Assembly (NCBI GenBank): GCA_964016885.1
Contig: OZ024740.1
Location: 68,634,001-68,698,000 of the forward strand
DNA from: Eledone cirrhosa
Lineage: Eukaryota
Reading direction: 5' to 3'
DNA: 64,000 nucleotides
This document shows, piece by piece, positions 4,836 to 48,279 of this stretch. The position numbers and the translations under genes were made by a program. The first letter of the stretch is position 1, and each line of letters opens with the position of its first letter. The notes under the pieces were generated by a model. That model was not told the DNA's origin, made no database searches, and saw only the letters and a list, made by a program, of their open reading frames with translations.

Positions 4836-5439
4836 CAAACAAACCAAGCATTATAATAAATGCTCGGTAAATCCATACGTACATAAATATATCTGTGCAC
4901 GTATGTATATATATACATACTACTGTACGTCTGTATACATATTTATATTTAAATAACAGCCGTACTAAGAGTGAGAAATGAAATGAAATTTCGTTTCATT
5001 TGTTCCATTTATTGTTTTCGGTGCGCCCGGACGATAAACTCACTCGATATGCAAATTAGGCTACTGAGCCGTTAATATGCATAGGGAAAGTATATAGTTT
5101 CAGACGTTCAAACATCTGGCAGGAAGGTATACGGTGCTGACGATAGCTAATAAGATTGAAACTAGTACAGCGTTCCTTTGTCAGTGTTGAACAAATGAGC
5201 AACGATGGTTGCTAAACACTGTACGGCTTAATTCGGGATGTTTGTTTACAAACAAACTGAGCATTATAATAAATGCTCGGTAAACCCATACGTACATATA
5301 TATATGTGTGCATGTATTTATATATATATATATATATACATACTACTGTAAGTCTGTATACATATATGTATGTACGTATACATACTTATATTTAAGTAAC
5401 AGCCGTAGTAAGAGTGATAAATTTCGTTTCATTTTTTCC

Positions 5440-11002: not shown

Positions 11003-11042
<40 letters not shown>

Positions 11043-11666
11043 AAAAAGGGATGAAATCGAAAATGCAACTGCAGTCTTATTTTTTTTTTAAATATATATA
11101 TTTATTTGGTTCCTTTACCGGTTTCGCAGTTCTTCTGCTTTTCAAAAGGTGAGTTGAGATGGAGGGTCTGTGGTTTTTCTCACATCTGGTTGGTCTCTAA
11201 ATGTTACTTGTTTTATATGGAAAAACTGGCTCGAAAACCAGGTTTTTCGAGAAGTAATTTGATTGGTTTGTCAATAATTATAATAAATTTCGCGCCAGTT
11301 CGCGTTACAATAGCTCTTCAAATAAGAGAGGGGGAGGGGGGGTTGTCACAGGTTGTTTTTTCATATATGAGTGTTTGAATTTCTTTTTACTTGAAAAAAA
11401 TGAGGCTCACGAAGGCTTTTTTTTGGTTGGTTATAAATGAAATTTGGCTGTCACGTGAACAAGTTTTCATTACATTTTTGCGCCCTTATTTGGAAAACTA
11501 TTCTGTAGTCTTTATAGTGAATGTTATGACAATGGAGAGATAGTGTTCAAGGGAAAAGGGATTTGGAGAAATGTTCTGGTTCAGTGAATATGGCCAGCTG
11601 TCAGAGTTCAGGTGTCAGAGTTCAGATTTTCTATTGAGACTGGAGATATGTGTTTATTTGTGTGCT

Positions 11667-11701
<35 letters not shown>

Positions 11702-12246
11702 ATGTGTGTATTGGAAGATGATTCTATTAGTAGAGATGGGGGAGGGAGTTGTGTGTTATGTGTGTGTGTGCGAGTATGTTAGATAGAGAGAATATATATT
11801 TTGTGTGTGTGTATATATATATGTGTGTAGGAAAGTGGTTCTATTAGTAGAAATGGGGAGGGTGTTGTAGGTGTGGGGGTTGTTATGTGTGTGTATGGGT
11901 GTTATGTGTGTGGCAGTATGGTTAGCATGTTAAGATGAAGAGAATATATATATATATATATATTGTGTGTGTGTGTATGTGTGTGTGTAGGACAATGATT
12001 CCTTTAGTAGGAATATTTTTGAATGAACATATTTTCCTGACTTTTTCGTGTTTGCTATTGTATTGCCAGTGCAAACGTATGTTTAAGGTTTATTTAGTTC
12101 GGGTTTTTATTTTCTAAAGTAGAAGGTGTTATGTGTGTGTGTGTATGTCATATTGTGGTGTTGACATAATGTATATTAAACCTTATTTAATGTTGGTCTA
12201 TATTTTTGAATAAACATATTTTCCTTATTTATTCGCATTTGTTCTG

Positions 12247-13316
12247 TTGTATTGGAAACGCTACTTGGATGATTGCCTCATTCTTTGGTCCCACACACTC
12301 GACCAACTGAAGGATTTCAAAAACTTAATAAACGGCATCAATAACCACATCCAATTCACAATGGAATACAGCCAAGATCAACTCCCATTTCTGGACATCT
12401 TAATCACAAAAAAAGACACAAATATCGAAACTGACATACACTACAAACCAACAGATTCCAAACAATATCTGCTATTCACCTCCAACCATCCAAAGCAGAC
12501 GAAGACGAACATTCCTTTTAACCTAGCAAGAAGAATTTGCACAATTGTCTCCAATTATGAAACGCGAAATAAAAGACTTGAAGAATTAAAGGAAATTCTA
12601 CTTGAGAGAGAGTACCCACTATTACTAATAAATAATGGAATAGAAAGGGCTAAAGCAATAGGCATTGATGAATTACGGAAACAGAAACAAATTCAAGGTA
12701 CGTCCAATATTCTATCATATATCTCAACACACAACCCAAGAAATGCGGAAGCTTACAACACTATTCACAATAACATCCCACTACTAAAACAAAACCCAAG
12801 AATGAAAAAAGCCCTTGAAACACACAAAATAATCAAAAGCAAAAGACAACCAAAATCACTGAAAACATTACTCACCAATGCCAAATTACCTACCACAAAC
12901 CCACAACCAAGTATCAAAAAATGTGGTCGCTCTAATTGTGGAACCTGCACTCACCTCATTGAAGGCAACACGTATACATTTAAATCAGGACAAAATTTTA
13001 CTGTAAAAAATCACTACACTTGCTCATCAAAAAATCTAATTTATGCCATTAAATGTAAAGGATGCAATGAAGATTATATAGGACAAACTAAACTCACACT
13101 CAGAAACAGAATGACAGTTCATCGCCAACAATTACGAGATCCAACCACGAGACAGATACCACTAAGTGCATATCTAGACTTTGCGCAAGTAATAAGACAC
13201 CCAAATTCCAAGTCTTCCCATTTTACCTTTGCGCTAACAATACAACAGAACAAATGCGAATAAATAAGGACAATATGTTTATTCAAAAATATAGACCAAC
13301 ATTAAATAAAGTTTAA
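12247..13316 (+). pseudogene. PLE RT C-terminus, Cys-rich linker and GIY-YIG endonuclease (Neptune-like architecture), frameshifted near 13180
   Basis: Motifs WKRYLDD, LPFLDILI, YKPTDSKQYL, CGRSNCGTC and NLIYAIKCKGCNEDYIGQT. The shifted frame continues CASNKTPKFQVFPF...FIQKYRPTLNKV* to 13316. Confidence 0.88.
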
Positions 13317-14331
13317 TATACATTATGTCAACAACACAATATGACATACACACACACACATAACACCTTCTACTTTAGAAAATAAAAACCCGAACTAAAT
13401 AAACCTTAAACATACGTTTGCACTGGCAATACAATAGCAAACACGAAAAAGTAAGGAAAATATGTTCATTCAAAAATATTCCTACTAAAGGAATCATTTT
13501 CCTACACACTCACATACACACACACACAATATATATATATATATATATTCTCTTCATCTTAACATGCTAACCATACTCCCACACACATAACACCCATACA
13601 CACACATAACAACCCCCACACCTACAACACCCTCCCCATTTCTACTAATAGAACCACTTTCCTACACACATATATATATACACACACACAAAATATATAT
13701 TCTCTCTATCTAACATACTCGCACACACACACATAACACACAACTCCCTCCCCCATCTCTACTAATAGAATCATCTTCCAATACACACATACACACACAC
13801 ACACATATACACACACACAAGCACACAAATAAACACATATCTTCAGTCTCAATAGAAAATCTGAACTCTGACACCTGAACTCTGACAGCTGGCCATATTC
13901 ACTGAACCAGAACATTTCTCCCAATCCCTTTTCCCTTGACCACTATCTCTCCATTGTCATAACATTCACTATAAAGACTACAGAATAGTTTTCCAAATAG
14001 GGCGCAAAAATGTAATGAAAACTTGTTCACGTGACAGACAAATTTCATTTATAACCAACCCAAAAAAAGCCTTCGTGAGCCTCATTTTTTCAAGTAAAAA
14101 GAAATTCAAACACTCATATATGAAAAAACAACCTGTGACAACCCCCCCCCCTCTCTTATTTGAAGAACTATTTAAACGCGAACTGGCGCGAAATTTATTA
14201 TAATTATTGACAAACCAATCAAATTACTTCTCGAAAAACCTGGTTTTCGAGCCACTTTTTCCATATAAAACAAGTAACATTTAGAGACCAACCAGATGTG
14301 AGAAAAACCACAGACACTCCATCTCAACTCA

Positions 14332-14369
14332 CCTTTTGAAAAGCAGAAGAACTGCGAAACCGGTATAGG
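14332..14369 (+). ncRNA. Minimal PLE-type hammerhead variant (inverted copy at 11112-11149, - strand)
   Basis: cctt TTGAAAA gcag-aagaa-ctgc GAAA ccgg TA| (t/a)agg. Stem III is the palindrome ACCGGT; the first core box is non-canonical. Confidence 0.65.
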
Positions 14370-14500
14370 AACCAAATAAATATATATATTTTTTAAAATA
14401 ATAAGACTTCAGTTGCATTTTCGATTTCATCCCTTTTTCTTTATACTTCCACTCGTGTAGGACACCTCGGTTATTTTTCATTTTGTAAAAAAAACCTCAC

Positions 14501-14549
<49 letters not shown>

Positions 14550-14567
14550 TATATATATATATATATA

Positions 14568-16545
14568 TAAGATCAAAAGATGGTTAAAAGAGTTCCATGT
14601 ATTTTATTATGCGCATTTCAAAAACAAATATCATCATGCGATAACATTTGTGTTTTCGTCGGATAAAATAGGAACACATTTCATATATAGTCTATTTTTA
14701 GGGGTGTAGAATTGCTATTTAGGGTAGAAAGATAGGTAGTGTTAAGATTTGGTTGAAGGTTTGAAGCGTGAGAATTTCGCTTTCAGTTTATGCTGGCAAA
14801 AAATTGACCTTTCAATGTTGTTGTTGAGTAGTTGGTGGCTTGAGCTTAGGATATGGAAGAGCTCATTATTACACAATGGGCACGTTTTCATCCCACTCCT
14901 GTATGGAGGAGCATGTGAGAGTTTGGTCCATTTAAGTGTGTATTGTTGGTTACTTCCTTTTAAGTGCCAAATTTTGTCGGCGAGAGTCGTTACGTAACGG
15001 TGTTGGCGGTGTTTTATTGCGTAACGATGCGTGTACCAACGAGTTTTGAAGGTGTTTGCAGTGCTGCCTATGTAGTGCCAGGTTTGGTTGCCCGACTCAA
15101 CCGCGCACCTGTACACTAGGTTTGAATGCAAACATTCGTTATTCAATGGACAAGTCTCTGGAAGGTGGCAATTACAATTTCTGTTATGGGCAGTGGTAGA
15201 GTTATAGGTGGGCTGGGATGTGTGTGTGAGTGTGTTTTGTGCATACTGATTGTTAGTGGGTGGTTGTGTATTAGGTGTATTATTGTGTTGAGTGATTGGC
15301 GTGTGTGTTACGGAGTTTTTTGGCGTTGAGCATCTTAATGTTAGCGTCTAGGTTTGGTGCAGTGGAATAAGATAGTCTAATTGTTTTGGTATTAAGTATA
15401 CTACTATATTTATGTGAATTTGGTAAGTGTTTTTTTATAATTTTGTAGAATGTGGAAGGTAAGTTAGAGCTAATAGAAGAGTTAAAATAGGATTATACCA
15501 AATGTAAGATCTACTCAGTGTTCTGTTTTGCTTTGATGTTGCTGTTGTATTTGTGGTGTGGTTAGTATTAGGGGGTCTAGGTGTGTGTGTGCGGGTGTTT
15601 GTGGGACGTTTGGCGTGTCTGTGGTTATGTGTTTTATGGTTTTGTCGGTCCATGTATTCTAGTTTGTCGGTGTGGCCAGCCCGTTCTAATGCAGTGTTGT
15701 AGTAATCAGCGTGTTGATCGAATATTTGTTGGTTAGATGAGAGGCGGGATATTCTAAGTGATATGCTATGTGGCACGGACCTTATAATAGATAGTGGATG
15801 GTTAGAGCTAGTGTGGATGTAGGTGAGGTTCTCATTGTTTTTGTGATAATTTGGGTGTTGAGGTTGAAGGTGGCATCTAGGAAGTTAACTACTTTGGTAC
15901 TATATTCGTAGGTGATTTTAAGGCCAAGGCTATCTAGGGTTCTTCTAATGCTCTTACGGGTTCGCTCTATGTTTTATTTATTCATGTTTTTAACTAATAG
16001 GAGAGCGTCATCTCTATATATTCCGCCTTGAAGGTAACTAACTTTATTACGTAAGGTGTGGGCTATGTATATACCAACAATATCCGTAACTTGTGTTGAG
16101 TCATTAGCACCCATAGTTATGTCAAAGTTATCTATTCTATCCTTACGTATCCAAAAGTTATTTTCAAATTTAATTATCGTCTTTCTTGCTGCTAGGATAA
16201 TGTTTATTTCGTCGTCGGTTAAGTCAGAGTTGGCTTTCGCAAATTCTAGTGCCTTGTTTAGAGTATCGGGTGATATGGATGAGTAATAGTCATTAATGTC
16301 GAATTGTATAAAGTTAGAGGTATTTTTATTATCTATACTATTAAACCATTTAATTGTGTCGCTAGTATTGTCCCAAAGTTTAATAACTAGTTTATTCCTT
16401 AATTGTATTATTATTCTATCTAAAATATGCTTGCTAATTTTACCTATGTCTGACTTAGATGGGCATATTAATCTAATAGTTGGTTTATCTAGGAAATCTA
16501 ATTTGTGGTCCTTAAGATTAAAGGTGGGGGTGCAAGTTGTCATGG
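14568..16545 (-). mobile_element. Decayed Naiad-like Penelope element (RT and C-terminal GIY-YIG) with a 3' HHR-bearing terminus
   Basis: ORF 15974-16543 has KDHK..KPTIRLICPSKSDIGKISK, FDINDYYSSI, FDITMGAND and GIYRDD. ORF 15435-15776 is the thumb/linker region. ORF 14742-15146 has LVYRC..YIGSTANTFKTRW..CPLC..FCQHK. Frames are disrupted, and the 3' end abuts (TA)n. Confidence 0.88.
14600..14670 (-). ncRNA. Type I hammerhead with a 16-bp stem II, in the 3' end of the Naiad-like element
   Basis: ttttat CCGACGA aaacacaaatgttatc-gcat-gatgatatttgttttt GAAA tgcgca TA| ataaaa. Confidence 0.75.
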
Positions 16546-16681
16546 GCTCAGTTCATGGTCTTTCTTGATTGCCTATTATAATATAGTGTAGCAATAATGG
16601 ACTGAAATTCTGATGAAACAATTGTTAATTCGTGGATTAAATTCTTTTGTAACTGTTTACCTTCGTCCTATTTCTCTTCTT

Positions 16682-17847
<1,166 letters not shown>

Positions 17848-17957: not shown

Positions 17958-19001
17958 AGTATAACTGAACAAAAGCGAAAAACGAACATAGACATATCCA
18001 TATATTTGTTCAAATCGTAAAGGACCAGAATAGCTAAGGTGAAACGAATACTAACTACAGACAATAGGGTTTGCTAGACTCAATTTAAGAATAAATCAAG
18101 AAAAATAAATACAAACCAGAATTGTGGTAACCTCCGATCACCCGGACAGTTTTGATAGTACTGTTTCGCAATAATATTTGTGAAGAGGAATACCAAAATC
18201 CTAGCTCATCAGCGAGTGAAGAATTCTTAGTATCCTGATCACTTCTAAATATAATAAAAAAACTGGATAGTGTGTGAGCCGAATATAGCAAAGGCATGTT
18301 AAAAGCTCAAAATAGTCTCATTACAGTTAATTAGCTCTAGGGAAGAGGTTTTTTCCGAGCCGTATAGTATAACTGATCAAAAAAGAAAAACGAACACAGA
18401 CATATACATATATGTGTTCAAATCGTAATGGACCAGAATCAATAAGGTGATCACTAAGGGTGATCGGTAGTTAACACAATTCAGGTTTTCATACATTCGG
18501 CTCTTAATTCTTAGAGCTAATTCAAATCTCGAGTAAACCCGGCTGCTATTTTAAGTGGCGTGAGTCTGCGAGACACGCTATGTTCGGGAACCATGTGCGT
18601 TACACACACTATCCAGTTTTTATATCATATTTAGAAGTGATCAGGATACTAATAATTCTTCACCCGCTGATGAGCTAGGATTCTGGTATTCCTTTTCACA
18701 AATAATATTGCGAACAGTACTATCAAAACTGTCCGGGTGATTGGTAGTTACCACAATTCTGGTGTGTATTTATTTTTCTTGATTCATTCTTAAATTGAGT
18801 CTAGCAAACCCTATTGTCTGTAGTTAGTATTCGTTTCACCTTAGCGATTCTGGTCCATTACGATTTGAACACATATATGTATATGTCTGTGTGCGGTCTT
18901 CCTTTTTGTTCAGTTATACTATACGGCTCGGAAAAGCTTCTTCCCTAGAGCTAATTTACTGCAATGAGACTATTTTGAGTTTCTAACTCAATACATGCCT
19001 T

Positions 19002-26785: not shown

Positions 26786-29455
26786 TGAAAAAGGTAAGCA
26801 GAAATAACAACCCAATCGGTACAGTATATGTAACGGATATATTAGGTTAAAGCTTGATATAGCAGGAAGAGGGCCTAAACGTTTTAGACGTTAGTACTTC
26901 ATCATACGAAAGAATGAGAAATAAGAAAGATTGAGGGGACGGGCGGGTTGGAATTAGAAAACATGTCTTTAGATAAAAATAACAAGTCTATTGATGTTGC
27001 CATCTCTTGCAAAACTTTTGATGCTGGCGTTCTGTGTTTGATTTATTTTTTAGAAAAGTGGATGATGGAGCGCCTCTACCTGAAATGGAAAATAAGCATT
27101 TTGTAAAAACAGCTATACTTGTGCACGTGAGTAAGCACGTGTGTGCGTGTGTGTGTGCGCGCCCGCGCGTGTTATTATACGTCCGTACGTAGCTAAGAAG
27201 AAATGTGCGCGTGGGTATATGTGAGTAAAAGAGTGTGTGTGCATGTAAGTACGAAGCTATGAGCAAAAGTATGTTAATATAAGGGAGTGTATGTTCGTAT
27301 ACAGAGCAGTGAAGGTAAAAGTGGAGCGAGCATACATATTATGCAAGAGATGTTAATGATCAAGAGAAAGAGATAGGAATCTAGGGGGGTGATAATGGAC
27401 GGGCTATTAAAGAAATTGGGGAGGTGAGTTGAGTCCAAGAGGGGAATAGGACCCAAGGTGGTGAATCAGACTTTGTTCAGTCCTGGTGCGCGTGGCCTGT
27501 AATCCTTGATGTACAAGGACACCCAGGACTGAAACATGTAGGGAAGAATGACCAGGAGAACAGAAATGATGGGCGACAGGAGTATCCAAACCGAGTCGTA
27601 TGTACCTCAAATGTCCGGCAAAACGGTCCGCCACACGGCGTCATTTGACCGATATATAAAGACCCGCAAAGGGAAAACCGGATGTGGATGTGCAGGTAGA
27701 GAAATGGCTCATTCGGAAAGACCCCTTAGGCCCTGTAAGAGTGGTCAAAGCGAGCGCGCTTAAAAGCAGTAATGGGTGCATTTGGAAAAATGCGAGAAGT
27801 GACGAGGTCAGGAACGGAGGATATGTCGCCGGAGTTGTTGGGTGATAGGGTGGTAGGTGAGTGGGAAAGGAACCCGGGTGTTGGGAGGGCGGGGGTTAGA
27901 GAAGCTCGGAATAGGGTGGAGCGATATCCACGCTAGACGAAGCAGGAAGTCATGCGAAGGGAATGGGTTTCGAAATCGTCGTCCTAGCTACAGAGTCGAC
28001 GAAGACGAAAGAATTGGAAATAGGGTATGGAGTGTATGGTGTGTGTTGGATGGGAGGAGGTGAAGTCGAGGTAAGATTGGGAGTTTGTTGGTTTAATGAA
28101 GATGGAAGTAGAGATGGTGTGGTGATAGTGATTAATAGATAGAGAGATATCCAGAAAAGCGACAGAAGAATCGGTGACGGAGGCGGTGAAATTGAGAGCA
28201 GCATGGAAAGATTGGACACAAGAGAGAAATCAGTTGAGCTGTTCTCGTGATAGAGAGGTGGCACCGATGCAACCATCGATATAACGGCCATATAGTTCAG
28301 GAGTCGGTCGAGCGTACTGGGAGAAGATCTGGACAATCACGTAGCCAACAAACAAGTTGGCATAGTTTGAATACATTCTGGTTCCCATCGCTACCCGAGG
28401 GACCTGCTGATAAAATTCACCCGAAAAAGAAAATACATTGAGAGTGAGAACAATCTCATCCAGACGGAGAGGTGTGGTTGTGCTGAGGTAAGGGGTAGGT
28501 CATAAATCTAAAACATATTGGAGAGCGAGGAGTCTGTCATCATCAGGGATGACGGTATAGAGAGAGGGGATGCCCAGAGTAGAGAGAAGACGGGGGGGCA
28601 GAATGGAAGGTTAAAGAGTTGAAAGGTCTAAGGGCATGAGTTGTATCGTGGATGTAGGAGGGGAGATTGCCGAGCAACGGAGCGAAGATGGTGTCTAAAT
28701 ATTCAGAAATTATCTCCATGGGGCAGTTGCACGCAGAAATGATAGGACGGCCGGGATTATTTTGTTTGTGTATTTTGAGGAGGAAGTAGATGGTGGGGGT
28801 GCGAGAGGTGCGTACAATAAGGTTGGTAGGTGTGGGGCGAGGAGAGAGGAGGAGATGAGCTCGTGGATGGTGGAGGACACGAGTTGCTGGTTGCCAGGAG
28901 TGGGGTCGGAGGATAAAGGGCGGTAAAAAGGGTATTGTGAAGTTGACGGAGAGCCTCAGCCCTATAGAGGACAGAGCTCAAAACCACCACAGCGCCACCT
29001 TTGTCAGCGAGTTTGATGACAATGTCATCGCGACGCCGAAGGTTGCGAAGAGCGGAGAGCACAGTCCCCGTGATGTTAGAGCGACGAGAACGCTGGGGGA
29101 AATGGAACCGATTCACAGTATGCCGGCAAGTATCGACAAAGGAGTTGAGGGTGCTGAACTGGCGTCCAATGTGATTGCCGGCGACTGAGACGAGTGAAGT
29201 CATCCATCTGTGATGATGATGATGGCGTGTCGTGAAAAAAAGGTTTCCGCTTTAATCGACGGAAGAACCCTTCAATCTCGGCACGTGTGCGGAACTAGTC
29301 GCAGGTAGATGTGGTAGGTGTAAAACGCAAACCACAGGCGAGGAGGGAGCGCTCAGCTTCAGAGAGTTGTAGGTCCTAGGGTATGGAGACTACAGTGCAG
29401 GGACGTGAGGGAGTGAAATAGGCGGAGGCGGAGGGGTTAAGGTGGTTGGCAAAGC
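26786..29455 (-). mobile_element. Near full-length decayed Penelope-like element (RT and GIY-YIG)
   Basis: Minus-strand frames read DDIVIKLADKGGAVVVL, NPGRPIISACNCP, VAMGTRM and GRYIDG (catalytic DD mutated), then LYIGQ..ADRFAGHL..PVAHHF..SPLGLN. The 3' terminus with an HHR-like tgatgaag..gtctaaaacgtt ends at a TA tract. Confidence 0.88.
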
Positions 29456-30180: not shown

Positions 30181-31200
30181 AAAATCATGTTCAATAAAAC
30201 GTGGTTTTGATGACTCCTAACCAGTAGAGTATCCGGTGGACCATCCACCATAGGGACCACAAACTATGTGTAGTTGTTGTTGTCCATTGGTCATTTGTAC
30301 GGGGTGTAGGGGACCTACAGAGGGAGGGCGTTGTGGGAGGCCTTAACCGGGGTTTATCCATATAGCTTGAGGAGAGTTCCCGTCCTTACCTGCCTGCAGG
30401 CACCGAATAAGTCGGCCCTTCTGTTTAATAGATGGGTTCCGCCATGAAGTATCTCGATTGGCTCACTAAGACAGAGGTTGCAAATACCAGACCCGCATCT
30501 GTTTGGGGGAACATTTCTAACCACGGACCAGCCCAGAGAGTGCGGGGTCTTTTCAAGTTTGAGCTTCTAGATCAATTCGGAAAGGGCCGTACAATTCCTC
30601 TTATCTATTCTGTTAAAGGTATGGCGATCGATAGTTATACCACCGATCTTTGAATCTCATCGCTGAGGATCCTATGTAGTGATGCACCTGGAGACTACAT
30701 TTTTCGTCATGCATTCATTACTGAGGGGGCATAGTGATGGGTCTCTGCAATTACATGACTTGTTAAGCCCCGCCACATGTACCGCGTGGTTACCATCACT
30801 CGGGGTTGGCTGGGTAGCCTCCGGAATCAGCACAGGGTCGTTGGGTTCCGGTGTGCTAGTCGAACCTGTTCGGGGTCCGGTGCATCCCGCGTGCTGGTTC
30901 TGTTGGGTGGCTCCGTGGTTCACGGTGGTATTAGAGGCAGTGAGCCTATTACTATTTATGCCAGCTATGTGCTGGGCTACGGAGCGTGTGGTTGAGTAGG
31001 AAAGTTTCACCGTGTGCCTGTTGAATATTTTATGGTACTTTTGGGCCCTAGGGAAACATTTATCCAGTACTCTAAAGAATGTTCTAGCCAGGCTGGTATG
31101 TAGACTCACCGAGTATGGAGGGTTATACCATGTGACCTTCCTGGTCCTATTCTTGCGGGGTTGTTAGGTGTCCGCCGTGGTCCATCGCGGGGTTGTGCAC
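30181..31200 (-). mobile_element. 3' fragment of a second Naiad-like PLE (GIY-YIG domain)
   Basis: VTWYNPPYS, HKIFNRHTVKLSYS and CNCRDPSLCPLSNEC, then in shifted frames YIGSSAMRFKDRW, CNLCLSE and LLNRRADLFGACRQ, with a stop at 30354. The 3' end abuts a TA-rich tract. Confidence 0.85.
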
Positions 31201-36283: not shown

Positions 36284-37642
<1,359 letters not shown>

Positions 37643-44500: not shown

Positions 44501-46116
44501 TTATATTTGCCGTTAAATATGGGTTTCAACAATATTTTTATTATTTATTTTGCGAGTACTTTAACTATATCTATTTTGTTACTGCGTATTTTAGCGACAT
44601 ATTTGTGAAATGGCCGGCTTCATCTTTGTTAAAGTTCCCTCTTTTATCTATATGTATGGTTTTGATTCAGATATTCCAATGGTTTTAATGGTGTTTGTGC
44701 ATTGTTCATATTTATCGAAGAAGATGTATTATTCTTATCATTCTGTTATCTAGGTTATCTTACACCGTTCAGTATGTAAAATGAATATTCTGTAATTCAA
44801 TTTAACCTTCCGATCATCTATTATGTGATGGTGACATGTATTGTTTTTATTTATTTCATTTTTTAACAACACATTGCTTATTTACTCACGCAAGCGTATT
44901 GAAAATAGTTTAACTCACTTATACTACAGGTTGTTCACTTGAATTGATATCGAATTCTCCTATCTACATGTCACATCGCGTGTCTCAATCTATGTTTGCG
45001 TTTAATAGTGGGCTTTCTGAATCACTCTTTGTCATAGGTGTTTCTTTGTCCTGATCTTTATCCAGTTCTTAAGTCGTTGATATTATATAGGTCTATTCGT
45101 ATGTAATGTCAAATTTATGTCCAATATGTATCGTAATGCTGCATAAATCCAGATTATTTTCAACTATTTCATCGGAGCTGTGAACAATGAATTAGTAGAC
45201 CCAGCCAAATCGACGGCACGACGTTGTTGGTATTCGCATTGAACCGCTTAAGGCTGATGATCGCCTGGAAGAATTTGATGAGGAACTAATTTTCATAGGA
45301 CTAAGAGATTTGAAAGTGGAGACCACTCAATATGGATAATTATGAGACGATATAGAATTAAACAGATGAGACTCGATAGTCTTACATGAGAACAGCAAAT
45401 TTCAAGTATCAGAGCCGGCCCTAATAATAGCGTAATAAAGAAACTATGTGACGAGGTTTTAGTAGGATGGGCTTGATGTTTTGTCCTCAGTTTAATCTGA
45501 TACGTTTTCGTATTGTGTATAGTGTCTAGTATATTAATATTGCTATTGATATTATCGTTGGTAACATATATAATACATGATTACATATATTAAAGATCAT
45601 AATTAACGCTACCACAATTTACTGCATTCTTCAATAAATTGTAATATACTGTTTGTAGCCTTGATATCCAACTTCCTCAAATAATGCTTTCCATTGGTTA
45701 CTAATATAATCGTCTATGTAGCTGAATATTCGCTTTTCATGATCAGGCGTTCCTTCTTCCATACCGATGAACTCTGCATATAGTTGTTTCAGTATGAATA
45801 GATTCATCGCCTGTATAATATGGTATCATATATAACGGTCATCTATTAGCATCAGATAACGCTTAAATGTCTTTATTTTGTCCATCGCGTTTTCTACTTT
45901 GGCATCTATAGATTGCTCCGTTGTGTACTCCCTTGAACTAGCGTCAATGTTTCCTAGTAAAAATATATGTCTATTCAAAAACAGAAAATATTTGAGTATA
46001 GACATAGAATATTCGAAAATATTCTGTATGTTTATAATAAACATTTTGATGACCTAATCGCTATAGAATAGAATACGTCACGTATTACAATTAGATTCTC
46101 GATAAAAGCAAGGGAA

Positions 46117-46159
46117 GTAATCTACGCGTTTCATTCTTGTTAGAATTCATCAGGACTAC
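46117..46159 (-). ncRNA. Type I hammerhead ribozyme, antisense copies (also 46427-46469 and 46737-46779)
   Basis: Exact reverse complement of the 46943-46985 motif. Confidence 0.9.
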
Positions 46160-46942
46160 ATATCCAGTGCTTTTATCGAGAATGACACAGCTAGAGACTT
46201 ATAGAATACTTAGCTGTGTACTGGAACTGGTTTGAAAGAGCGGTTGCCGGTCCGGCAGAAATTAGAAATTGGAATAAATGCTCTGAAATAGCGATATATA
46301 TGTGAGTATAGACATAGAATATTCGAAAATATTCTGTATGTTTATAATAAACATTTTGATGACCTAATCGCTATAGAATAGAATACGTCACGTATTACAA
46401 TTAGATTCTCGATAAAAGCAAGGGAAGTAATCTACGCGTTTCATTCTTGTTAGAATTCATCAGGACTACATATCCAGTGCTTTTATCGAGAATGACACAG
46501 CTAGAGACTTATAGAATACTTAGCTGTGTACTGGAACTGGTTTGAAAGAGCGGTTGCCGGTCCGGCAGAAATTAGAAATTGGAATAAATGCTCTGAAATA
46601 GCGATATATATGTGAGTATAGACATAGAATATTCGAAAATATTCTGTATGTTTATAATAAACATTTTGATGACCTAATCGCTATAGAATAGAATACGTCA
46701 CGTATTACAATTAGATTCTCGATAAAAGCAAGGGAAGTAATCTACGCGTTTCATTCTTGTTAGAATTCATCAGGACTACATATCCAGTGCTTTTATCGAG
46801 AATGACACAGCTATTTCAGAGCATTTATTCCAATTTCTAATTTCTGCCGGACCGGCAACCGCTCTTTCAAACCAGTTCCAGTACACAGCTAAGTATTCTA
46901 TAAGTCTCTAGCTGTGTCATTCTCGATAAAAGCACTGGATAT

Positions 46943-46985
46943 GTAGTCCTGATGAATTCTAACAAGAATGAAACGCGTAGATTAC
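46943..46985 (+). ncRNA. Type I hammerhead ribozyme (further copies at 47253-47295 and 47563-47605)
   Basis: gtagtc CTGATGA attc-taacaa-gaat GAAA cgcg TA| gattac. Stem I is 6 bp, stem II 4 bp, stem III is the palindrome ACGCGT, and the cleavage triplet is GUA. Stem I extends through an internal loop into ttctcgataaaagca/tgcttttatcgagaa. Confidence 0.92.
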
Positions 46986-48279
46986 TTCCCTTGCTTTTAT
47001 CGAGAATCTAATTGTAATACGTGACGTATTCTATTCTATAGCGATTAGGTCATCAAAATGTTTATTATAAACATACAGAATATTTTCGAATATTCTATGT
47101 CTATACTCACATATATATCGCTATTTCAGAGCATTTATTCCAATTTCTAATTTCTGCCGGACCGGCAACCGCTCTTTCAAACCAGTTCCAGTACACAGCT
47201 AAGTATTCTATAAGTCTCTAGCTGTGTCATTCTCGATAAAAGCACTGGATATGTAGTCCTGATGAATTCTAACAAGAATGAAACGCGTAGATTACTTCCC
47301 TTGCTTTTATCGAGAATCTAATTGTAATACGTGACGTATTCTATTCTATAGCGATTAGGTCATCAAAATGTTTATTATAAACATACAGAATATTTTCGAA
47401 TATTCTATGTCTATACTCACATATATATCGCTATTTCAGAGCATTTATTCCAATTTCTAATTTCTGCCGGACCGGCAACCGCTCTTTCAAACCAGTTCCA
47501 GTACACAGCTAAGTATTCTATAAGTCTCTAGCTGTGTCATTCTCGATAAAAGCACTGGATATGTAGTCCTGATGAATTCTAACAAGAATGAAACGCGTAG
47601 ATTACTTCCCTTGCTTTTATCGAGAATCTAATTGTAATACGTGACGTATTCTATTCTATAGCGATTAGGTCATCAAAATGTTTATTATAAACATACAGAA
47701 TATTTTCGAATATTCTATGTCTATACTCACATATATATCGCTATTTCAGAGCAGAAAATATTTATTTGGAGAAATGTATATATTTGTCAAAGTTGCATAA
47801 ACACGTTCGTCTGAAAGAAATGTTACTTTATAAATAATTGATTCTACTTTTGGCACAAGGCCAGCAATTATCCCAGTACATTACTGGTACTTTATTTTAT
47901 TAACTCCGATAAAATAAACTACCAGTAATGCACTGAGATATAAATAATATTATGTCTACAGAAACTTATCAGAGTCGTCAAAGCGCCGGCTTATATGCTA
48001 CAGCATTTTTTCCATCGTTCTGCAATCTGAATTCGAATGCAGTGGCTAGGGATAGGGGAAATAGACAGGCGGGATGTTTTTCGATGCATGAACAGGTTTC
48101 TTGCGTTCTCAGTTCAGTTCCTGCCACACTCAGCAATGGGAAAACCAATGGAAATAAGACTGTCTTGGTCTGAGTGGACGATCTTCTACTGAACTTCTAA
48201 ATACAATTCGGAATATTCAGCATTATCTTAATTCAGTGTGCGTAGAACGCATCGCAATTGCATGTGTAGAATGTGAATG

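Follow-up and report, generated by a model that had tools for sequence, protein, structure and literature searches.

How can almost six identical ribozyme-bearing units come to lie in two opposed arms inside one short target-site duplication? The question is raised by a locus at 45982-47763 of a 64,000-nucleotide stretch of the Eledone cirrhosa genome (contig OZ024740.1; the whole stretch is referred to as the window), where 310-bp units, each carrying a type I hammerhead motif, are joined head-to-head. The locus belongs to a large family of non-LTR (long terminal repeat) retrozymes, which we hold with little doubt, from its genomic structure, to be moved by Penelope-like elements (PLEs). Comparison of the present insertion with its relatives indicates that both arms are likely copies of one 310-nt RNA, probably circular, made by a borrowed PLE reverse transcriptase that would have primed on each strand of a staggered cut.

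Anatomy of the insertion

The features of the locus are the following, monomer positions being counted from the predicted cleavage site.

45963-45981, plus strand: pre-insertion flank resembling the tail region of the element, with 13 of 19 nt matching 47733-47751
45982-45993, plus strand: left copy of the 12-bp target-site duplication, CAGAAAATATTT, overlapping the left arm by 1 nt
45993-46813, minus strand: left (inverted) arm, 821 bp or 2.65 units, RNA-sense 3' end at position 130 (untailed class) and 5' end at 240
46810-46813, no strand: 4-nt overlap of the arms, GCTA, joining the 5' ends of both
46810-47753, plus strand: right arm, 944 bp or 3.05 units, 5' end at position 141 and 3' end at 154 (tailed class)
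47730-47753, plus strand: PLE-type tail, monomer positions 131-154, at the right end only, holding a motif conserved in sister families
47752-47763, plus strand: right copy of the 12-bp target-site duplication, CAGAAAATATTT, overlapping the right arm by 2 nt
46980-47289, plus strand: predicted 310-nt monomer, from cleavage site to cleavage site, the coordinate system for monomer positions
46949-46979, 47259-47289 and 47569-47599, plus strand: type I hammerhead core motifs of the right arm
46743-46773, 46433-46463 and 46123-46153, minus strand: type I hammerhead core motifs of the inverted arm
46919-47007, plus strand: extended stem I closing the ribozyme, 46919-46939 pairing with 46987-47007
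47052, 47362 and 47672 on the plus strand, 46670, 46360 and 46050 on the minus strand: private A at monomer position 73, in all six units covering it

Aligned to both arms, the circular 310-nt monomer leaves no mismatch. Viewed in RNA sense, the 5' ends of the arms meet in the centre and each 3' end adjoins one copy of the target duplication; CAGAAAATATTT occurs in the window at these two sites only and is absent from the 310-nt unit. The sequence-only reading of this DNA had described about 5.7 identical units, a head-to-head join at a 4-nt gcta microhomology, a 12-bp duplication at both ends, six type I hammerhead copies, three per strand, and no open reading frame (ORF), and all of these were recovered here, the six cores being identical and the longest stop-free stretch of the concatemer spanning 59 codons. 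Its label "ambisense" is dropped: unlike an ambisense viroid-like RNA, the unit has one hammerhead on a single strand, so that one RNA polarity bears the ribozyme and both DNA strands carry hammerheads only through the inversion of one arm. The element contains no reverse transcriptase (RT) or GIY-YIG endonuclease ORF, as an autonomous PLE would.

The hammerhead core and stems I-III are present in 6/6 units, and the predicted cleavage triplet GUA ends at 46979. Stem III consists of two pairs around the palindrome ACGCGU, a weak arrangement known to need dimers (PMC4209133), and two cores are predicted to co-fold at -25.1 kcal/mol, against -17.2 kcal/mol for two monomers. The predicted fold of the whole unit is better than that of shuffled sequences (z -5.25, 0/100 shuffles as good). 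An Rfam scan at gathering thresholds gave 0 matches, so the ribozyme call rests on inspection of motif and pairing. With 310 nt, a GC content of 34.5% and no ORF, the unit fits the tandem low-GC units of about 150-400 nt by which non-LTR retrozymes are recognized, and the hammerhead in each unit, the dispersed copies described below and a target duplication longer than 4 bp agree with the same identity, as first proposed. None of 5081 flank 19-mers reaches the 13 matches to the tail region seen at 45963-45981, a single case that could reflect an endonuclease preference for tail-like DNA.

Paired ends and a probable single template for both arms

The element is no rarity and is a member of a large family. 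The hammerhead region of the unit has 16,395 exact matches in the 3.0-Gb assembly, the dispersed copies that a retrozyme should have, and 1,067 exact junctions between the tail end and ATA occur genome-wide; from a median of 8.7 units per locus in a biased sample, about 1,900 loci are estimated. Besides the window, 73 other regions were examined, namely every one of the 19 other loci represented in the 150 matches listed for internal sequence (picked internally), 16 of the 1,067 tail-end junctions, 36 loci from 69 short-end matches, and the 2 remaining places with an A at position 73 (A73). Elements of at least 150 bp were kept, L118 and L123 being dropped for holding less than 150 bp of element. 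The resulting 79 elements comprise 67 complete two-armed, 7 one-armed and 5 cut off by N or by the region limit, the last five being excluded from the counts of ends; two-armed elements are accordingly 67 of the 74 readable to both ends, the remainder consisting of L046, L048 and five pieces of L101. The latter (G000:C14:25209500-25216500) is a higher-order array in which retrozyme multimers are split by short AT spacers, which suggests later DNA-level amplification into a satellite. Runs of (AT)n lie on both flanks in 63/67 elements, partly through the selection of loci, and most target duplications are unreadable inside them; set beside the 19 internally picked loci, the present locus is the exception to (AT)n flanking, with an unusually readable duplication of 12 bp.

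Arm 3' ends fall into two classes, a short class at positions 105-139 (56/68 at 130/139) and a tailed class at positions 154-172 (46/66 at 165), with no arm ending between 140 and 153. The tail is typically 26-35 nt long, and 24 nt at the present locus. One short end is paired with one tailed end in 66/67 complete two-armed elements. The classes were first noted in the 19 internally picked loci, where the pairing holds in 18/19 elements (p 4e-5); in the sets fetched afterwards it holds in 13/13 elements picked by the tailed end and 34/34 picked by the short end. These two fixed, paired sites bear out the second priming event that had been invoked to explain the inversion. An AU run of the RNA offers pairing to the primer at the short end (5/6 nt at the present locus), and at the tailed end homology is about 2 nt. 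Sister retrozyme families with different ribozymes, found through 5,013 matches, share an 11-nt motif in the tail that is invariant in 11/11 aligned copies, and sister elements often end just past it. For both reasons, the motif is probably an enzyme-recognition site.

Arm 5' ends are nearly uniform round the circle (overall p 0.10), 0/130 of them lying within 2 nt of the cleavage site, and this site is crossed seamlessly 628 times within arrays, so that the template shows no end. The arms overlap by 0-5 nt at 49/65 junctions, extra bases lie at 15/65, and one junction (1/65, in L091) has a 16-nt self-complementary overlap; the longer arm is the short-end arm in 29/65 elements and the tailed arm in 36/65. 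Two geometries were tried and both stayed at chance level: a collision of polymerases, which would leave near-equal 5' ends (4/65 within 10 nt, 4.4 expected), and an abutment of the arms of the L1 type (6 and 8 of 65, 8.6 expected).

The family base at position 73 is T, and this letter is read in 3,821/3,825 raw reads of sequencing run X21. A73 is matched 8 times in the genome, by 6 units of the present locus and by 2 single units on other haplotype backgrounds. In L136, four A>G changes and a 1-nt deletion are common to every unit of both arms, and the pair 188G+189G has 8 matches in the genome, 8/8 of them in that locus. Mosaic variants are limited to 4, each in 2 units. Because variants stay uniform from unit to unit, through as many as 17 of them, and on both sides of the inversion, a one-unit bottleneck is required, which would most simply be a circle copied repeatedly. 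The presence of A73 in all six units, of the L136 haplotype in both arms and of other private variants on either side of the inversion makes it very likely that both arms were copied from one template molecule, in line with the sequence-only reading.

The kind of change fixed in the arrays is also skewed. Among 24 distinct locus-wide substitutions, 11 are sense-strand A>G and 0 are T>C, compared with 4 A>G and 7 T>C among the 39 changes confined to a single unit (Fisher p 0.004), and 20G, 259G and 276G recur on different backgrounds. Such a skew is the pattern expected from inosines read as G, and it is probable that adenosine-to-inosine (A-to-I) edits have been fixed in the arrays. Predicted stems show no clear excess of the candidate editing sites (8/11 paired, compared with 55/94 of the As).

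Several results point to a young insertion made in one event, as had been claimed. The 39 single-unit changes were found in 203 kb, after 27 end artefacts at position 131 had been discarded. In run X1, a 3,284-nt contig aligns by its last 127 nt to 47733-47859, with 6 differing letters and no gap; exactly 6 positions also separate the left flank 45963-45993 from 47733-47763, and the contig is therefore read as left flank, one duplication copy and right flank. Judging from these alignment figures, it most likely shows the empty site, X1 possibly being the assembled sample. On this reading, the contig would carry the single CAGAAAATATTT that is expected of an empty allele. The divergent arms inside one target duplication, together with the genome-wide comparison, support a single insertion event.

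Proposed mechanism and its rivals

Non-LTR retrozymes and their RNA circles have been described (PMC7229834, PMC7761336, PMC4209133), and their circle-templated, PLE-driven movement has been stated as a hypothesis (PMC7229834, PMC4209133, bioRxiv 10.64898/2026.07.22.740005). The metazoan examples (newt and axolotl satellite 2, coral, mussel; PMC7229834) are similar to the present family in their tandem units of about 300 nt and low GC, type I hammerhead, lack of an ORF, long target duplication and, as in the newt, weak palindromic stem III. They differ in forming head-to-tail arrays, and divergent arms, paired ends, (AT)n targeting, frozen edits and octopus are not described in the available parts of that source. 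For vertebrate non-LTR retrozymes (bioRxiv 10.64898/2026.07.22.740005), PLE origin and mobilisation are likewise argued from co-occurrence and pseudo-LTR similarity, whereas the local DNA-level amplification suggested there fits poorly here; the accessible text of that work samples no mollusc and contains no analysis of insertion ends.

On the PLE side, insertions with an inverted 5'-truncated copy and a tail of 30-40 bp, often at one end only, have been reported (PMC8557442, PMC3846280). The purified PLE protein of Anolis, a predicted dimer, cleaves and extends both strands and uses two adjacent internal RNA start sites whose spacing equals the tail (PMC11167929). Endonuclease-containing PLEs (PMC8557442, PMC3846280, PMC11167929) thereby resemble the present family in the head-to-head inverted 5'-truncated copy, the tail at one end, the two RT start sites, the (TA)n or AT-rich targets and the hammerhead in the repeat, and how their tandem or inverted insertions and one-sided tails arise is called unresolved in the portions available of these three sources. 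Unlike them, the present element is ORF-less and both its arms are multimers of one small unit. In L1 twin priming, primings on opposite strands give an inverted 5' part, a short overlap and one target duplication, the arms deriving from neighbouring stretches of a single linear RNA, with a variable second site; in the present family, both sites are fixed, the arms repeat one unit and they do not abut. A literature search returned no report of two-armed retrozymes, paired retrozyme tail ends, edits fixed in arrays or cephalopod retrozymes, although subscription journals, repeat databases and supplements may hold some. A term search of the 2026 repeat annotation of Octopus vulgaris (PMC13282606) found neither "ribozyme" nor "retrozyme", and PMC8490949, in the part available, adds nothing on these points.

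Taken together, the following route would produce the observed structure. Multimeric transcripts would self-cleave after GUA by means of dimeric hammerheads and the released monomers would be ligated into circles, both by analogy with newt and axolotl retrozymes, and some circles would undergo A-to-I editing. A PLE RT-endonuclease, plausibly a dimer, would bind the conserved tail motif and nick both DNA strands, whose 3' ends would be extended from two start sites 25-35 nt apart; each polymerase would round the circle up to about 17 times and halt at a random point, and host end-joining would link the two cDNA ends. That the template was covalently circular is, to our judgement, quite likely. 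A fuller version, double rolling-circle reverse transcription, in which a PLE dimer holds one circle at two sites separated by 25-35 nt, and the edits of that molecule pass into the germline genome as heritable subfamily variants, is put forward tentatively.

A number of observations weigh against this explanation. A driver PLE sharing the unit or the tail motif was not found among the matches listed in four coding PLE sets (family A, 30 loci and 6 longer stretches; family B, 20 loci; family C, 20 and 3; a fourth, 20 and 16), the candidates in the genome, tens of thousands at first look per query, far exceeding those scored; nor did these sets hold a coding PLE with the 310-nt unit as its pseudo-LTR. 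L046 and L048 are one-armed, L035 has two short ends and is the sole exception among the 67, and a double (compensatory) change was seen in 0/9 predicted pairs of the tail region. The first 31-nt bin holds 23 arm 5' ends where 13 are expected, and the finding that 0/130 lie within 2 nt of the cleavage site has to be set beside a chance expectation of only about 2/130. Arm lengths correlate (rho 0.41, n=65), yet within the internally picked set of 19 the correlation is not significant (rho 0.18), so that they argue only faintly for simultaneous extension of the arms. The A>G changes at 2, 68 and 124 belong to an older subfamily, which makes their direction uncertain; when they are left out, the skew is 8 A>G to 0 T>C (p 0.002). 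No parent array carrying A73 or the L136 haplotype was found in the assembly, and the parent of such a "private" variant could lie on an unassembled haplotype or have been lost from this individual. The usual basal G-C pair of stem II is replaced by A-U here and by U-U in the commonest subfamily, and 8/9 predicted Xenopus retrozyme dimers did not cleave in vitro (bioRxiv 10.64898/2026.07.22.740005, in the text available). Three loci (L086, L094, L109) carry a locus-wide one-base insertion 2-4 nt past the predicted cleavage and ligation point, one of them being found in 159/2,577 reads of run X21. Finally, unprocessed RNA was the dominant substrate of the purified PLE protein, and ribozyme mutants had no effect on insertion (PMC11167929).

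This last result also speaks for a linear template, that is, for PLE machinery working on the uncleaved multimeric transcript of a parent array, or on a linear monomer copied repeatedly through end-to-end jumps. The weak ribozyme features and the genomic nature of the support for a circle point the same way, and a linear RNA accounts for the tail rule equally well. However, A73 and the L136 haplotype have no parent array in the assembly, an independently edited multimer would give mosaic units where only 4 mosaic variants of 2 units each are seen, the arms lack the abutment of L1-type twin priming, and the 628 crossings of the cleavage site are seamless, though the three loci just mentioned carry their insertion within 4 nt of it. 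A linear template is thus held to be unlikely. A single priming with the inverted arm made by self-priming, or fold-back at a palindrome, has been proposed for head-to-head PLE structures from palindromes at inverted junctions (PMC3846280, in the portion available); it would also give both arms common variants, and the L091 junction with its self-complementary overlap has the shape required. An arm made by fold-back could not outgrow the arm it was copied from, yet either arm may be the longer one here, the 5' ends coincide within 10 nt no more often than by chance (4/65, 4.4 expected), and most overlaps measure 0-5 nt with no palindromic centre. The unconstrained arm lengths largely refute it for this family, and it is very improbable.

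Expansion at the DNA level, by slippage or unequal crossover after insertion of a monomer or dimer, is rated just as improbable. It has been suggested for vertebrate retrozymes (bioRxiv 10.64898/2026.07.22.740005, in its accessible text), the higher-order array of L101 looks DNA-amplified, and a few variants do occur in exactly 2 units. On the other hand, changes number about 2 per 10 kb in arrays of as many as 17 units on both arms, an empty allele is likely, and 39 single-unit variants stand against 4 common to two units, a ratio which implies little copying after insertion. That the inversion or the copy number is an artefact of assembly or of long-read fold-back would deserve thought, since perfect repeats are hard to assemble and the structure is taken from the assembly. 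But the flanks differ and carry a clean duplication, variants are locus-specific, 67 loci with different junctions obey one end rule, and a contig probably spans the empty site without a gap, which makes an artefact scarcely credible. Reverse transcription of one RNA, probably circular, from two priming sites remains the explanation we prefer.

Surrounding elements and implications

The genome is very rich in PLEs, and the window itself holds one whose layout is that of the retrozyme.

11036-14508: coding PLE, 5'-truncated, with an inverted arm; RT end and GIY-YIG endonuclease at 12214-13263; variant hammerheads at about 11116 and 14336

Its short end lies at 11036 and its tailed end at 14508, with a 63-nt tail of different sequence, and its relatives include many near-identical copies with intact frames of 409 and 775 aa (the latter RT-endonuclease). 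Fragments of other PLE families lie at 14742-16552, 28543-29251 and 30672-31163, all on the minus strand. The motifs of these families tentatively suggest clades such as Neptune or Poseidon. Compared with the unit and two sister units, the four PLE sets gave nothing above AT-rich noise apart from one retrozyme copy that had inserted nearby, and no attached PLE ORF was seen at the loci with the sister motif (30 and 3), in both cases among the matches listed. Older sister families of about 316-322 nt share the tail motif (L141:340-1650, L140:520-900, L144-L176), and in many of their hammerhead cores the usual C3 and G8 are replaced by U and A, a feature also of the coding PLE at 11036-14508. Hammerhead-like motifs of other families occur at 5137-5167 (plus strand) and at 2629-2656, 16857-16884 and 18159-18212 (minus strand); the type at 5137 recurs tandemly at a spacing of 466-502 bp in L072 and L090 and is apparently another retrozyme family.

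Upstream of the insertion, an exon at 36284-37642 (plus strand) resembling heparan sulfate 3-O-sulfotransferases ends at a GT donor and is 72% identical over its full length to an Octopus bimaculoides protein, which marks the host as an octopod. A second exon was not found in the window or in the next 60 kb, so an intronic location of the insertion is unproven; if it is intronic, the transcript would form a hairpin of about 820 bp, in which the antisense arm would be transcribed ahead of the other and could mask the ribozymes. Downstream, 47833-47910 is a fragment of an extremely abundant short repeat, whose summed depth in X1 is about 20 times that of the retrozyme. No RNA run is listed among those that hold the unit. 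Two further runs matched the unit at 47444-47753. In X11, the changes A>G at 47512, 47585 and 47588 and T>C at 47688 appear, which are absent or nearly so in X1 and X21; depth on the unique flank is zero and the repeat ratio is very different, and since the kind of run, strand and individual are not on record, its resemblance to edited RNA is a lead only. In X4, labelled as another organism, a single contig of 340 nt and depth 26 covers the whole unit, showing only the common variants of the family, and traces of the neighbouring repeat are present too; this may indistinguishably reflect contamination, diet, a relative or transfer.

Each ingredient of the proposed explanation is known, both the retrozymes and the inverted and tailed structures of PLEs, and it is the combination and the genomic evidence for it that appear to be new. 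That evidence can be counted and bears on two mechanisms, through the near-perfect rule of one end with a tail and one without, the single-molecule origin of both arms and the RNA-editing footprint. The 310-nt template and the short conserved motif offer material for a direct in vitro test. If the fuller version with double rolling-circle synthesis is true, some two thousand single-molecule PLE reactions would be preserved in this family as a natural record, and the tails and inverted copies of PLEs at large would be accounted for; the editing footprint, moreover, suggests a route for RNA edits into the octopus genome.

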